This document shows positions 4,139-30,034 of a stretch of DNA of 64,000 nt, piece after piece (the first letter of the stretch is position 1; every line of letters begins with the position of its first letter). The DNA is from a phage. A program made the position numbers and the translations under genes. The notes beneath the pieces are model-generated. The model had not been told where the DNA came from. It did no database searches and worked only from the letters and a program-made list of their open reading frames with translations. Where the stretch lies: sequence record PZ049694.1; one strand, given 5' to 3'.

Positions 4139-4168
4139 ATTATACTCCAACCATCCTTGGTTGTAAAC
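4139..4168 (-). promoter_or_regulatory. T4 early-type promoter (GTTTAC -35, TATAAT -10) with inverted repeat (PeSL-like)
   Basis: minus strand GTTTAC, 18-nt spacer, TATAAT; ccaacc/ggttgg arms in the spacer. Confidence 0.5.
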
Positions 4169-11013: not shown

Positions 11014-11249
11014 TACCGATTGTGTTTTAAATGTTGATAAAGTTCTTCAACTTGTTTAGGGTCCAAAACAATTAGGTCATTTTCTTGGCGAAGATAAATC
11101 CATCCCTTATCCCCAGGACCATTTTTACAAAACATCACCGTCGTCATATCGTCATCTTCAGCGCTTTCAGGTAAAAGTTCAAGTACACCGTCTTCAGATT
11201 TTCCAGTATAATCGTAAAGCATAATATCCTCACATAATCTCGTTAACAT
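11013..11249 (-). CDS. hypothetical acidic protein, 78 aa
   Basis: ORF in early chain. Confidence 0.5.
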   Translation of the reverse strand: MLTRLCEDIMLYDYTGKSEDGVLELLPESAEDDDMTTVMFCKNGPGDKGWIYLRQENDLIVLDPKQVEELYQHLKHNR

Positions 11250-11409
11250 ACATTTGCAATTCGGAGTGGGCTTCGGCCATCTTTTTCATAGCTCTGTTAA
11301 TGTCGATGTCTCCATCTTCGCAACCATGAGCATTTTCCCAATCAGATACCGCATTAGCGTACTCTTCAATCAAAAACATTAACTTAGAAATTTTTTCTTT
11401 ACGTGACAT
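11230..11409 (-). CDS. hypothetical protein, 59 aa (start at MSRKEKISKL)
   Basis: track ORF runs through the promoter/terminator; internal ATG has a GAGGAG Shine-Dalgarno. Confidence 0.5.
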   Translation of the reverse strand: MSRKEKISKLMFLIEEYANAVSDWENAHGCEDGDIDINRAMKKMAEAHSELQMYVNEIM

Positions 11410-11413
11410 AACG

Positions 11414-11465
11414 TTCTCCTCTAGTAAGTAAGGACTACTATAACACAACCTGAGGAGAAGTAAAC
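11414..11465 (-). promoter_or_regulatory. PeSL-like early promoter whose hairpin pairs the downstream Shine-Dalgarno
   Basis: GTTTAC, 17-nt spacer, TATAGT; spacer arm ttctcctc pairs with gaggagaa (the Shine-Dalgarno of 11230..11409). Confidence 0.5.
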
Positions 11466-11473
11466 TGATAGAT

Positions 11474-11505
11474 GCCAAAAAGCCCCAACCATAAGGAAGG
11501 GGCTA
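11474..11505 (-). terminator. rho-independent terminator after rI
   Basis: minus strand agcccc-ttccttatggtt-ggggct then TTTTT; near-copy of the terminator at 27324..27355. Confidence 0.65.
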
Positions 11506-14579: not shown

Positions 14580-15038
14580 CTAGATTTTAATCACTGCTTT
14601 AGAAGCTTTTCCTGGTAGTCGTTTACTGTTAATAATAGCCATTCTGCATTGAAGAGTCTTCATTTTGAATGCTGGATTTTCGCGACAAACTGTAAGTCCT
14701 AGCCAAAGATTTCCATCAGTTATTTCTAAACGGCCTGGACGATATTCGACACCTTCGACAAAATCTTCATCAACATCTGGACGTGCCGGCATTGATAAAA
14801 ATTCTGCAACTTCTTTAACATGATTTTTTACTTTACGAAATAATTCAAAAACGTAGTTCTCATCTATTTCTCTCTGGATAGCACGATCTAAGAGATGTTG
14901 AGAATACTTGATATGAAAGCCTGGTAGTCCAAGAGACTTTGCAGCATCTTTTATACCGGCATTTATTTTGCGGAACTCCGTTTCAAAGATTCGACGGAGT
15001 TTATTACGGCGGATAAAAACGTCAGAATTGATAGTCAT
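14580..15038 (-). CDS. regB: RegB site-specific endoribonuclease
   Basis: 152 aa; MTIN..VFIRRNKLRR.FE.EFR.IN...KYSQHLLDRAIQREIDE.YVFELF...RLPGKASKAVIK matches recalled T4 RegB. Confidence 0.88.
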   Translation of the reverse strand: MTINSDVFIRRNKLRRIFETEFRKINAGIKDAAKSLGLPGFHIKYSQHLLDRAIQREIDENYVFELFRKVKNHVKEVAEFLSMPARPDVDEDFVEGVEYRPGRLEITDGNLWLGLTVCRENPAFKMKTLQCRMAIINSKRLPGKASKAVIKI

Positions 15039-15046
15039 TTTTGATT

Positions 15047-15096
15047 TCTCCTCTAGTTGACAGGTCTATAGTAACACAACTAGAGGAGAAGTAAAC
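15047..15096 (-). promoter_or_regulatory. PeSL-like early promoter with 13-bp stem pairing the regB Shine-Dalgarno
   Basis: GTTTAC, 17 nt, TACTAT; arms tctcctctagttg / caactagaggaga; the 3' arm holds the regB GAGGAG. Confidence 0.55.
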
Positions 15097-15437
15097 TACT
15101 CTTTGAAAGGAATTAACTTTTTAACTGCTTTAGATACTTCGTCACGAACCTGGTGGAAGTTCTTGAGCTGTTCAAGGCGTTGTTCGTAATACGCAATCTC
15201 ATCTTCTTCAAGACAATCGTCAGCGTCTTCTTTCAGATATGCCTTGTACTCATTAAAGAGGGCCCATAGGCGATTCTCAAAGTCATCAAGGCTTTGAATT
15301 TTCTTGTGCTTCGGAACAAGGCCAAAAGGATTGCTTTCAGTTATGCGTCGAGATGCTTCATAATGAGTTCCAAAGCCTGATAGGATTTGAGCCATTAGTA
15401 TTTTTCCTCTGGTCGAAATACCGCACGGCATGCCCAC
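15096..15437 (-). CDS. hypothetical protein, about 100-113 aa
   Basis: ORF; start uncertain (possibly MAQILSGF). Confidence 0.5.
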
Positions 15438-15661
15438 ATGCTGGCTTCTTTTAGATGTTGCTTAGCATACTTAAGAGCCTGCACTGCATCCATATCTTCT
15501 TTGGTTTGTTGCTCTGATTCATTTTCTTTCAAGATATATGCTTCTTCAATCAGAGCATCAAACATCAATCCAAGACGGACTTCTGCGTCTTTAATAGCGT
15601 TCACTTTACTGATTTTATCATCGGTATGTGGCTTGTAGCCTTTGATGTCTTCAATCGACAT
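15395..15661 (-). CDS. hypothetical protein, about 88 aa (start MSIEDIKGY)
   Basis: internal ATG with GAGGA Shine-Dalgarno; upstream part of track ORF overlaps the preceding gene. Confidence 0.4.
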
Positions 15662-17590: not shown

Positions 17591-17681
17591 TTTTGTTTCC
17601 TTGTTTGTTTTGATAGAGTAATTATACCATATTAATACTTAAGCGTAAACTGTTTAAGCTTTACCATCGCAACCTTTTTCC

Positions 17682-18095
17682 TTAGTAAATTGATTTACCA
17701 TAGTATTTGTACCAAGTAGGACGTTGAGCAATTTTTTCATCTAAACGAGCTTGACTTATCGCAATGGACGCTTCGGTCGGGACATAATTATTACGAAATT
17801 CGGCAGGGATGTCGGAAATATCTTGGACAGTCGTGTCCTTGATTTTGAAACCACGTTTCAAGCATTCAGCGATTAGCTCGATTTGACGTAAACGTAAAAA
17901 TTCGAGTTTGTCGTAAAAGAATGTTACGTGACCTGTGCCTAAGATAAATGCTGGAGAGATTTTAAAATCCTTTACACGTTTACCGTTTTGAACATGTTTA
18001 CGGACTGCACCAAATACGCGTGGTAATTCACGATACTCAGCCATAAGATGTTGGTCGGTCAGTTCAGAAACAAGTGTTAAATTGATACGAGTCAT
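17682..18095 (-). CDS. denV: endonuclease V (pyrimidine-dimer DNA glycosylase)
   Basis: [77 protein letters not shown] matches recalled T4 DenV; start trimmed to ATG. Confidence 0.92.
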
Positions 18096-18100
18096 AATTT

Positions 18101-18153
18101 CCTCCAAGTAGTTGATGAATGTATAGTATCAAAGTCCTTGGAGGAAGTAAACA
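18101..18153 (-). promoter_or_regulatory. PeSL-like early promoter whose hairpin pairs the denV Shine-Dalgarno
   Basis: GTTTAC, 18 nt, TACTAT; arms cctccaag / cttggagg; the arm downstream of the -10 contains the denV GGAGG. Confidence 0.5.
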
Positions 18154-18431: not shown

Positions 18432-18920
18432 TCATATATACGCTTTCCAAGTTCCTGTTTTAAATGTTGAGATTACGCGTTTAGCGCGATTAGGTGTCTG
18501 ACGATACCATTTAGATTGAGCTAGATTTACTGCCGCTTCATCCCAACGTTTCTGTTGAAGCATACGAAGAGAATTAGTAAAACCAGCGACGCCTGCTACG
18601 CCCATTTGGAAGACCATATTGACCAATGCACATCTACGAACCGCATCTAAAGAATCATATACCGGTTTAAGTTTAGCATTACCCAAGATTCCGCGAACGG
18701 CTTTATCAACGTCTTCATTAAATAGCTTTTCAGCCTCATCAAGGGTAATTGTACCGTTGCATTTACGTCCGATCATTCTGTCAAGTTCAGCTTTAGCTAC
18801 GGCTAAAGACGGGTTCTTTGTTACTAAATGACCTATGCCAATCGTCCAAAAGCCTTCAGTGTCTTTGTATAAAGTCAGTCTAAGACCTTCGTCATTACGA
18901 AGCATTTCAAATATATTCAT
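18432..18920 (-). CDS. e: endolysin (T4 lysozyme e)
   Basis: [27 protein letters not shown] with catalytic E11/D20/T26 positions conserved; matches recalled T4 e; GGGAGG Shine-Dalgarno can pair with an upstream CCTCC arm. Confidence 0.92.
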
Positions 18921-18954
18921 AATACCTCCCACGTTTATAGGAGGTATTTATTAC

Positions 18955-24295: not shown

Positions 24296-24851
24296 GGATT
24301 AAATTGTTAGTGAAATTAGGACTAACAACCATGGTTTCATAAAGCGCATCAATAGCACTTAAAGCATCAACTCTCTTAAGCAAAGGCTTGCCTTCATACA
24401 TAGTTTCAGAATCGACGATTAAAGTGAAGTAGTATTTTTTATTATTGACCAGAACTTCTGTATCAATATAAAACATGTTAGACCTTAAAAGCTTGTCTCT
24501 AAAGCCTACGTAATCATCTGAACGTTCACTGATATATTCCCATTCAGTGTTTAAACAACAAACAGACCACGTAGGAGCAACGAAATCAGTGAATCTAATA
24601 TCATGATCTGCAACTAATTTAGCAATAGCTCCGATATCATGAATCATAATACCTGGGGCTAATAAAGATTTTCGGCGATTTGCATATTCAGTTGTCTCAT
24701 AAGAAGCTGACCAGTACCATTTACGTCCAGTTGCAACATATCGTAATGAATCAACTAAAGACGTAGGTGGATTTACCTTATTTCGGAACTCTTCGAACAT
24801 TGAGTCAATATCATTATTTTGGTTTCGCATGTTAACTCCTTTATTATCCAA
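24234..24851 (-). CDS. hypothetical soluble protein carrying the same tail motif near its C-terminus (EQFIMECREYV), 205 aa
   Basis: ORF; motif lies 10 aa from the end. Confidence 0.5.
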   Translation of the reverse strand: MDNKGVNMRNQNNDIDSMFEEFRNKVNPPTSLVDSLRYVATGRKWYWSASYETTEYANRRKSLLAPGIMIHDIGAIAKLVADHDIRFTDFVAPTWSVCCLNTEWEYISERSDDYVGFRDKLLRSNMFYIDTEVLVNNKKYYFTLIVDSETMYEGKPLLKRVDALSAIDALYETMVVSPNFTNNLILEQFIMECREYVKANPVHAN

Positions 24852-24879
24852 AAGGAGGACCGGAGTCCTCCGTATTATT

Positions 24880-25473
24880 TTATTTCAAAGAGTTAATATA
24901 TTCTTGTACATCGGCAGAAGTGGTTTCGACACCGGTTGGAGTGCCATTGAACGTTTCAACACGAGTCAGAGTGTCTTCGATATCAACCTTAGTCAGTGCA
25001 GCGATTTCAATTACATCATCAGCCGTAGAGATACCAAGGGCATTAGCTGCTCGAGTTTCACGAATGTATTCGAGTTTGATTGCCAGGTTCTGACGAGCAT
25101 CGTCAAGTTCAACCACCTTACGAGCAATTTCAATTCGCATAGCGGCATACCCGTCAGCTTTTGTATTAAGTTGTTCGGCAGTTCGACGATACAGAAGACC
25201 AAGCTTGGCATGCATGGTAACATCTTGTCCTTCAGCCAGGAGCTTACGAATTTCACGTTCCTTAGAAGCGGCTTGCTTATTCTTTTCAATAACAAGTTCG
25301 CGAATACGTTTTTCTTCATTAATAGATTTAACAGAAGCCGTTTTTAGTTCTTTGATTTGGGTAATCAACTTATCTGCAGCTGCGTTATACTGTTCTTCGA
25401 CAGTCAGATTTTTAGCCATAGCAGTACCCAGTTTAGTGCGGATGAATTCAACAAGTTTCTTCAGTGTGTTCAT
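24880..25473 (-). CDS. coiled-coil protein, 197 aa (start trimmed to ATG MNTLKKL)
   Basis: track ORF starts at TTG; ATG has a GAAAGG Shine-Dalgarno; upstream TTTACA, 17 nt, TATAAT promoter with inverted repeat. Confidence 0.55.
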
Positions 25474-28020: not shown

Positions 28021-28097
<77 letters not shown>

Positions 28098-28100
28098 GAT

Positions 28101-28175
28101 TGGTGACCCTGGCTGGTTTCGATCCAGCTACCTATCAGTTATGAGCTGACAGCTCTCCCATTGAGCTACAGGGCC
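28101..28175 (-). tRNA. tRNA with CAT anticodon (Ile2-type by T4 analogy, or Met), CCA encoded
   Basis: acceptor GGCCCTG/CAGGGTC, D-arm GCTC-AATGGGA-GAGC, anticodon arm GTCAG-CTCATAA-CTGAT, T-arm GCTGG-ATCGAAA-CCAGC; 3 nt from tRNA-Arg. Confidence 0.75.
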
Positions 28176-29998: not shown

Positions 29999-30034
29999 AG
30001 GATGATAGTAACACACCATCATCCTTATGTAAAC
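29999..30034 (-). promoter_or_regulatory. PeSL-like early promoter (GTTTAC, 18 nt, TACTAT) with inverted repeat
   Basis: aggatgat / atcatcct arms around the -10. Confidence 0.5.

Follow-up and report, generated by a model that had tools for sequence, protein, structure and literature searches.

In bacteriophage T4, the genes e, soc, 49 and I-TevI, along with related endonuclease genes, carry a hairpin that sequesters the ribosome-binding site (RBS) and has a late promoter inside it, an established arrangement (PMC3014915; PMC2988022). On RNA initiated upstream of these genes, and likewise of segB and of mobE in phage Aeh1, the Shine-Dalgarno (SD) sequence lies in a helix, and transcripts from the promoter inside the hairpin lack its 5' arm and are translated. 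A 2010 review stated that the known cases "are all late genes" (PMC2988022). Here we describe hairpins built in the same way at two early genes, regB and denV, in a 64,000-nt stretch of phage DNA (PZ049694.1; the whole stretch is called the window below). An earlier reading of its letters alone (the sequence-only reading) had pointed to hairpins at regB, denV and the open reading frame (ORF) 11230..11409, and had correctly named T4 e and gene 49 as precedents (PMC3014915; PMC2988022). The design at regB and denV is a variant of that known mechanism. Whereas e, soc, 49 and I-TevI have the gp55 late promoter TATAAATA, the promoters of regB, denV and ORF 11230..11409 are early and sigma-70-type (GTTTAC, 17-18 nt, TAnnnT), and the genes are early genes. 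The timing would also be reversed, with translation of regB and denV proposed to be confined to the first minutes, while that of the late genes is delayed to late times.

Internal sigma-B promoters in Bacillus subtilis give rise to isoform-specific translation, verified by DMS-MaPseq and reporters (McCormick et al. 2021, PMC8208050). As proposed for regB and denV, the long isoforms occlude the RBS and initiation at the internal promoter drops the 5' part, raising translation up to 100-fold; that system differs in being cellular, in using an alternative sigma factor and in its long-range structures, which often reach into the upstream ORF (PMC8208050). At regB and denV, by comparison, a local hairpin of 10-14 bp sits within a cassette of <60 nt, and the internal promoter is one for the host sigma-70 holoenzyme. 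The PeSL cassettes of T4-type phages (Arbiol et al. 2010; Comeau et al. 2014) resemble those of regB and denV in being short and intergenic, with a strong early promoter, a stem-loop between or over the hexamers and the SD and ATG at the 3' end (PMC2839356), and in that the same cassette occurs at different genes. However, as described, the PeSL stem-loop stops short of the start site and does not include the SD, and it is read as a terminator or attenuator and a recombination site, whereas at regB and denV the leader supplies the 3' arm, which is the SD, and no U-tract follows. In IS10 and IS50, 'fold-back inhibition' reportedly guards the transposase from outside transcription (work attributed to Davis, Simons and Kleckner in 1985 and to Krebs and Reznikoff in 1986). 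Only read-through transcripts are reportedly silenced there, as proposed for regB and denV, but the setting is the end of a transposable element facing host promoters and not the timing of a phage operon. Valerie et al. are also said to have noted in 1986 (NAR 14:8637) that the sequences before ipIII, ipII, denV and orf61.9, the last of which we take to be regB, are capable of folding into stable stem-loops. Novelty probably does not lie in the bare structures; it seems to lie in their reading as early-promoter-dependent translation, their conservation with covariation across T4-like phages and their frequency in T4.

Hairpins across the regB and denV early promoters

The window belongs to an RB69-like T4-type phage (Mosigvirus) and not to T4 itself; its 14-19.5 kb stretch shows 99% identity to Escherichia phage vB_EcoM_JQD51 and ~97% to Mosigvirus genomes such as mar005P1 and ATK47. 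The early region is tightly packed, and by the annotation of a relative and the ORF list regB, denV, e and ORF 11230..11409 all lie on the minus strand. We scanned the window for early promoters, defined as GTTTAC (at most one mismatch), a 16-18 nt spacer and TAnnnT, followed by an SD and ATG, and found 20 sites, every one on the minus strand. The cassettes of regB and denV are intergenic, span 57-58 nt from the -35 hexamer to the ATG, and are composed as follows:

14580..15038, minus strand: regB coding sequence (endoribonuclease RegB, 152 aa)
15091..15096, minus strand: regB early promoter -35, GTTTAC; its first base is overlapped by the stop codon TAG (15098..15096) of the upstream vs.3-like ORF
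15077..15090, minus strand: regB 5' arm (anti-SD), TTCTCCTCTAGTTG, within the 17-nt promoter spacer
15068..15073, minus strand: regB -10, TACTAT, in the hairpin loop; predicted start site ~15061
15046..15059, minus strand: regB 3' arm, CAACTAGAGGAGAA, which holds the SD GGAG (15051..15048); ATG at 15038
17682..18095, minus strand: denV coding sequence (endonuclease V, 137 aa)
18147..18152, minus strand: denV early promoter -35, GTTTAC, from the early-promoter scan
18137..18146, minus strand: denV 5' arm (anti-SD), TTCCTCCAAG, which opens the 18-nt spacer
18123..18128, minus strand: denV -10, TACTAT, in the hairpin loop
18099..18108, minus strand: denV 3' arm, CTTGGAGGAA, which holds the SD GGAGG (18105..18101); ATG at 18095

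In minus-strand order, the regB intergenic region reads TAG TTTAC TTCTCCTCTAGTTG TGT TACTAT AGACCTGT CAACTAGAGGAGAA ATCAAAA ATG. The first 14 nt of the spacer pair perfectly with the SD-containing 3' arm, which begins 2 nt past the predicted start site, and a 17-nt loop carries the -10; the hairpin that the sequence-only reading had described, with the -10 in the loop and the SD in the 3' arm, is therefore present and one base pair longer than claimed. Local stability was measured as minimum free energy (MFE) and as z against 200 shuffles per locus. The 58-nt regB segment folded at -21.6 kcal/mol (z -4.25), and none of its shuffles was equally stable. Among perfect inverted repeats with loops of 3-30 nt, no other in the window is as long as its stem, and 20 dinucleotide shuffles of the window contained no stem of at least 13 bp. 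Each promoter site was also cut at its predicted start site into a "promoter" and a "leader", and the duplex between the two was compared with those formed by shuffled promoters; at regB this duplex reached -23.4 kcal/mol and 0 of 300 shuffled promoters did as well. The denV stem, claimed as 8 bp, has 10, with an MFE of -17.8 kcal/mol (z -5.33; 0/200 shuffles equally stable) and a promoter-leader duplex of -20.3 kcal/mol (0/300). Since 10-bp stems arise by chance (six perfect ones were observed in the window vs. 2.35 +/- 1.5 expected), the denV case needs further evidence from folding and comparison. A separate 16-nt inverted repeat (15504..15563) is 94% complementary, with 28 nt between its halves; it falls within vs.4-like coding sequence a short way upstream of regB and is one of only six repeats of at least 10 bp in the window.

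The arm sequences of regB and denV differ from each other. At both genes, complementarity reaches 5-9 bases past the SD core and the AUG stays outside the helix. By motif position, the 5' arm is upstream of the promoter's own predicted start, and since it lies inside the spacer, it cannot belong to a transcript begun at the same promoter. Leaders folded from the predicted start sites were unstructured (0 kcal/mol). The predicted probability of the SD being unpaired, P(SD unpaired), was 0.00 in the long, read-through form vs. ~0.4 in the short form. Folding thus agrees with the earlier expectation that own-promoter transcripts lack the 5' arm and have a free SD while read-through RNA sequesters it, and the check that had been named beforehand returned stable stems at both genes (no equal among 200 shuffles each) together with unstructured promoter-proximal leaders.

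No U-tract follows either stem; AATCAAAAATG (RNA AAUCAAAAAUG) comes after that of regB and ATTATG (AUUAUG) after that of denV, on which ground an intrinsic terminator was ruled out. A scan of the window for terminator-like sites returned neither hairpin and found no intrinsic terminator between regB or denV and their upstream promoters. An RNase III site is unlikely, the stems being too short. A scan of the whole window with Rfam covariance models at the gathering score gave no match for the hairpins; the sole matches were two adjacent tRNA genes (28024..28175, minus strand).

Conservation and covariation of the arms

Scans of viral contigs for RegB and DenV gave 16 loci first, then 43 regB loci in a wider scan and 80 denV loci, and from T4-like phages we collected 55 distinct promoter-leaders (30 regB, 25 denV). 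The same architecture with changed arms was found upstream of regB and denV homologues, in at least 10 different arm sequences, such as CTCTAGTTG/CAACTAGAG, CTCTTGACTG/CAGTTAAGAG, CTGTAAG/CTTACAG, CTTTTAGT/ACTAAAAG, CCGTTTG/CAAACGG and CCTCATTTG/CAAATGAGG. The arm pairs by gene are:

regB, T4 type: TTTTCCTCTTGACTG/CAGTTAAGAGGAGAA, with two G-U pairs
regB, relatives: TTTCTCCTCTTTATG/CATAAAGAGGAGAAA; ATCTCCTGTAAG/CTTACAGGAGA; ATCTCCTTTTAGT/ACTAAAAGGAGAT; CTCCTCTTG/CAAGAGGAG
regB, SD itself altered and anti-SD altered to match: ATCCTCATTTG/CAAATGAGGAT
denV, T4 included: TCTCCTGTAG/CTACAGGAGA
denV, relatives: TCTCCGTTTG/CAAACGGAGA; TCTCCTGTG/CACAGGAGA
denV, second layout: ATGTCCTCC/GGAGGACAT; AGTGTTCTC/GAGAACACT; GATGTCTTCC/GGAGGACATC

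The second layout occurs at denV in a further phage group, where the anti-SD extends over the last -10 bases and the discriminator, pairing with the SD and the spacer to the ATG. In both layouts the anti-SD is upstream of the expected start site, a coincidence that, on these predicted starts, would be hard to explain except by promoter-dependent release of the SD. The 3' arm is the SD in 47 of the 55 distinct promoter-leaders. P(SD unpaired) was <0.05 in the long isoform for 26 of 30 regB and 21 of 25 denV promoter-leaders, and its median in the short isoform was 0.39 and 0.36, respectively. Across 44 distinct arm types, cognate promoter-leader duplexes averaged -15.7 kcal/mol vs. -9.9 kcal/mol for non-cognate ones, a difference that 0 of 100000 permutations reached.

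Covariation was scored on a gapless, arm-anchored alignment of 25 sequences, which is biased toward structure; controls with slid partners and shuffles were included to offset this. Both sides change in 13 of 15 pairs, and the score was 0.418 vs. 0.154 +/- 0.019 in shuffled alignments (0/500) and 0.08-0.13 with partners slid by 1-3 columns. All four types of Watson-Crick pair occur at the second position out from the SD core. In a plain MAFFT alignment of regB leaders the arms fell out of register, which made it unusable for covariation. The pairing is not present in the most distant RegB relative (40% identity). The arms are thus present, stable, placed within the promoter motifs as described and conserved with covariation, and the comparative data support selection on structure. 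The earlier argument that arms differ between loci and stay complementary holds for regB vs. denV and across homologues, where compensatory changes are found; the cassettes of regB and ORF 11230..11409 are near-copies.

Identical arms, ATCTCCTGTAG/CTACAGGAGA, with a nearly identical loop, occur at T4 denV (65413) and at regB of five loci from another phage group (L113, L119, L122, L123, L137), a pattern that indicates that whole promoter-SD cassettes have probably been exchanged between genes or phages.

Two observations were made on individual contigs. In four phage contigs of 345-378 kb (L040, L042, L045, L046; jumbo-phage relatives), a terminator hairpin stands 60-100 nt upstream of denV, and its stem holds the -35 TTGAC of the next promoter (GGGTTGACTTCGGTCAGCCCTTTTTGCTATAAT), a different merger of terminator and promoter. 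In the early region of GenBank PV204681.1 (L098), product names look shifted or misassigned relative to the coding-sequence coordinates, with 'thymidine kinase' on a 213-nt ORF beside the real 582-nt tk and 'major capsid protein' on a 957-nt early-region ORF; the coordinates are usable and the names are not.

Other promoters in the window

The remaining hairpins named by the sequence-only reading are those of ORF 11230..11409 and of e, which denV adjoins on its downstream side:

11410..11465, minus strand: weak third case, with GTTTAC (11465..11460), a 17-nt spacer, TATAGT (11442..11437) and ATG at 11409
11459..11452, minus strand: 5' arm of ORF 11230..11409, TTCTCCTC
11421..11414, minus strand: 3' arm of ORF 11230..11409, GAGGAGAA; the -10 TATAGT is in the loop
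11477..11504, minus strand: hairpin resembling a terminator, AGCCCC..GGGGCT and then TTTT, a short way upstream of the promoter at 11465
18432..18920, minus strand: e (lysozyme), ATG at 18920
18921..18948, minus strand: e hairpin, with the 5' arm (18948..18937) holding CCTCC and the 3' arm (18932..18921) holding GGGAGG

At ORF 11230..11409 the claimed pairing and the -10 in the loop were found, but the hairpin is weak, with an MFE of -13.5 (z -1.0) and 34 of 200 shuffles folding as well; its promoter-leader duplex (-15.3 kcal/mol) was marginal (p = 0.023). The cassette is a near-copy of that of regB with the inner stem broken, and since the two are near-copies, they are not independent cases. 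Its relatives, only three and near-identical, have unchanged arms and give no covariation information. The CCTCC/GGGAGG pairing claimed upstream of e lies in a 12-bp stem (MFE -15.6, z -4.86). Among these four loci only e has a late-promoter-like sequence beside the 5' arm, AATAAATA, which ends where CCTCC starts; its hairpin is the already known late-gene version.

Among the 20 early-promoter sites, promoter-leader pairing stood out only at regB and denV (0/300 each) and at ORF 11230..11409, and there was no overall excess of cognate pairing over all 20 in the duplex test (p = 0.18). Since only three of the 20 promoters have the design, it is locus-specific in the window and not general to early promoters. 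Of the mapped genes, 49 have a recognisable SD, and for these SD accessibility was computed in a -100..+40 context; only six had a P(SD unpaired) of <0.01, four of which are regB, denV, ORF 11230..11409 and e. At ATG 24830 (minus strand), the SD is predicted to pair with sequence farther upstream (P unpaired 0.008) and there is no promoter-embedded design; a terminator-like hairpin, GGAGGAC-TCCG-GTCCTCC followed by TTTT, lies just before this SD (24850..24880).

Seven further early promoters (-35 at 30034, 29679, 22736, 21445, 21176, 11013 and 6802) have hairpins across the -10 of -13 to -18 kcal/mol, each matched by 0 of 300 shuffles. Their stems join the spacer to the -10 and the conserved discriminator without involving the SD, as in GATAGGACTA-TGTTA-TAGTCCTATC, and they match the PeSL description. 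Since they are as strong as those of regB and denV, a hairpin straddling the -10 is not by itself proof of SD control. Hairpins over the -10 are common in the window; the peculiarity of regB and denV lies in the use of the SD as the 3' arm. A duplicated cassette was also noted on the minus strand, where the promoters at 4168 and ~5170 (ATG 5105) have an identical 24-nt spacer and -10, AACCAAGGATGGTTGGAGTATAAT, with a small hairpin, CAACCA/TGGTTG, between the hexamers.

Proposed promoter-dependent translation and competing explanations

Promoter-dependent translation of regB and denV is, in our judgment, the best explanation of the hairpins and probably the correct one. The spacer of a sigma-70-type T4 early promoter would carry an anti-SD together with several bases matching those just 5' of the SD. 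Transcripts begun at promoters farther upstream, whether early or middle read-through or, in the case of denV, late RNA from e, would contain both arms and fold co-transcriptionally into a 10-14 bp hairpin burying the SD; the 30S subunit could then not bind, and the buried GGAG would escape cleavage by RegB, which structure blocks. RNA from the gene's own promoter would begin ~7 nt past the -10, about where the 3' arm starts, and without the anti-SD would be translated; that of regB would also be open to RegB autoregulation. Synthesis of RegB and DenV would in this way depend on the short period in which their own immediate-early promoters fire, though the genes persist on long later transcripts, and the outcome would be a pulse of both proteins confined to the 2-3 min of early-promoter firing. 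Read-through into regB and denV appears plausible from the lack of an intergenic terminator, the tight packing of the upstream genes and the presence of upstream early promoters, those at 17650 and 18152 being possible sources for regB.

Several points weigh against this explanation. For this phage we infer the start sites, the read-through RNA and the effect on translation. Accessibility of the SD in the short isoform is only ~0.4, like that of other genes in the window and not exceptionally open. The arm-anchored alignment leans toward structure, a weak point, and since identical cassettes stand at different genes, part of the covariation reflects cassette exchange and not compensatory mutation in place. 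Sense and antisense folding of the 44 promoter-leader types did not differ (Wilcoxon p = 0.68); most stems are pure Watson-Crick, so that both strands fold equally, and a structure in sense RNA is not thereby proven over one in DNA. The seven SD-free cases show that some selection on promoter hairpins exists without a link to the SD. The third locus is weak, since alone it is not significant, and the terminator-like hairpin at 11477..11504 would already reduce read-through into ORF 11230..11409. Finally, because hiding the SD also blocks the ribosome, shielding from RegB and ribosome occlusion are inseparable from the letters alone.

That last point leads to the view that the hairpin mainly hides the GGAG of the SD from RegB in long read-through RNA, sparing polycistronic delayed-early and middle mRNA, with the translation block as a side effect. 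In early SDs, the targets of RegB are GGAG and some GGAU, and secondary structure inhibits the enzyme (PMC3014915; PMC1702504); it cuts its own SD in T4-related phages (PMC3014915), and one of the only two intergenic GGAU sites that it cuts is that of T4 motB.2 (PMC1702504), which also has a promoter-embedded anti-SD; at all loci studied, GGAG or GGAU is inside the stem. Shielding is possibly an equally direct consequence of the same structure. As the main function it is unlikely: the T4 denV SD resists RegB through its 3' context (PMC1702504), yet the denV hairpin is the most widely conserved, and shielding gives no reason for the constant placement of the anti-SD ahead of the local start site. 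We are more doubtful that these are ordinary PeSL cassettes, in which the stem-loop attenuates or terminates upstream transcription and gives homology for gene shuffling, with the overlap of the SD incidental. T4-type PeSLs do have stem-loops between the -35 and -10 or over the -10, one of which lowered downstream lacZ as a strong terminator would (PMC2839356; PMC4122927); hairpins of this kind, with the SD uninvolved, are found at seven other promoters in the window, and identical cassettes precede different genes in different phages. However, neither the regB nor the denV stem is followed by a U-tract, and the published stem-loops are wholly upstream of the start with the SD outside, whereas here the SD serves as the 3' arm in 47 of 55 cases and in two layouts, which neither termination nor recombination requires.

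We give little credence to an action of the inverted repeat in DNA, either as a cruciform or hairpin affecting promoter opening or as a site through which a dimeric phage protein turns early promoters off. In its favour, the -10 stands at the centre of the repeat, most stems contain only Watson-Crick pairs and are equal on both strands, and the shut-off of T4 early promoters is unexplained (PMC3014915; PMC2988021). The arm sequences, however, differ at every locus and phage and so offer no common protein site, and a common protein operator was ruled out on this ground. Imperfect arms contain 20 sense-strand G-U pairs vs. 3 A-C mismatches, which is only suggestive, and T4 regB folds at -21.6 in sense vs. 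-12.2 in antisense; a role in DNA also gives no reason for one arm being the SD. Translational coupling by the melting of hairpins is known from phage and operon mRNAs, and the upstream stop codon is only 5-7 nt ahead of the 5' arm in the window (farther upstream in relatives), so that on read-through RNA the SD might open only when a ribosome finishes the upstream gene, and regB or denV would then be translated in proportion to that gene and not silenced. This is very improbable here. With the stop codon in the A site, the entry channel should extend to ~+11 to +13, which corresponds to GTTTAC and 0-2 arm bases and would leave 8-12 bp intact (unwinding geometry cited in PMC8208050); a terminating ribosome would thus open at most ~2 bp, making coupling unlikely, and in the B. 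subtilis analogue upstream translation gave no relief of repression (PMC8208050). Chance complementarity between a pyrimidine-rich spacer and a purine-rich SD could be entertained in that 10-bp perfect repeats are not rare at the rate expected per window, that the third locus is within chance and that non-cognate spacers still pair with SDs at ~-10 kcal/mol. For ORF 11230..11409 alone, chance pairing is possible. As a general account it is hardly credible, since the regB stem is beyond anything in the shuffles and the complementarity past the SD core covaries across phages; at regB and denV, chance pairing was refuted by the cognate-duplex permutations, the covariation, and the inverted-repeat and fold-shuffle tests.

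We also took a census of T4 (NC_000866), which covered 1-99 kb and 119-169 kb. A promoter-embedded anti-SD (p <= 0.005) was found at seven of 39 sites with an early promoter, SD and ATG, namely regB, denV, motB.2, nrdC.8, ndd.4, alc and alt.-3, with stems of 13-19 bp; 30.8, modB and mrh.2 are weaker cases. The promoters of T4 ipII, ipIII, dmd, ipI, mobD.2 and 30.7 have the SD-free type of hairpin. Unlike T4 nrdC.8, its orthologue in the window (ATG 6746) has the SD-free type, so that the design is cassette-specific, yet at regB and denV it persists to an unusual degree.

T4 is the textbook case of timed expression, and the sharp stop of many early proteins is only partly explained by promoter shut-off and RegB. 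If promoter-dependent translation holds, it would add a third, purely cis-acting layer in which translatability is set by which promoter made the RNA, and regB (a RelE-like RNase), alc and denV would be expressed as a short pulse despite continued transcription in long operons. Because the design fits within <60 nt and travels with the promoter cassette, it could move between genes by the recombination proposed for PeSLs, and so compact a part would be attractive for synthetic operons. More tentatively, and with rather more doubt than for regB and denV themselves, promoter-embedded anti-SDs, present at about one in five T4 early promoters, might be a general, cassette-borne rule of T4-type phages, by which a defined early set is translated only from immediate-early RNA; this could contribute to the abrupt fall in early protein synthesis a few minutes into infection and could spare the long delayed-early and middle mRNAs from being cut by RegB at these junctions.

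One annotation came to attention in the census. At T4 ndd.4 (NC_000866, 166749..166764), the annotated ATG at 166764 overlaps a GGAGG whose distance to the in-frame ATG at 166749 is ideal, and the annotated start may therefore sit 5 codons too far upstream.

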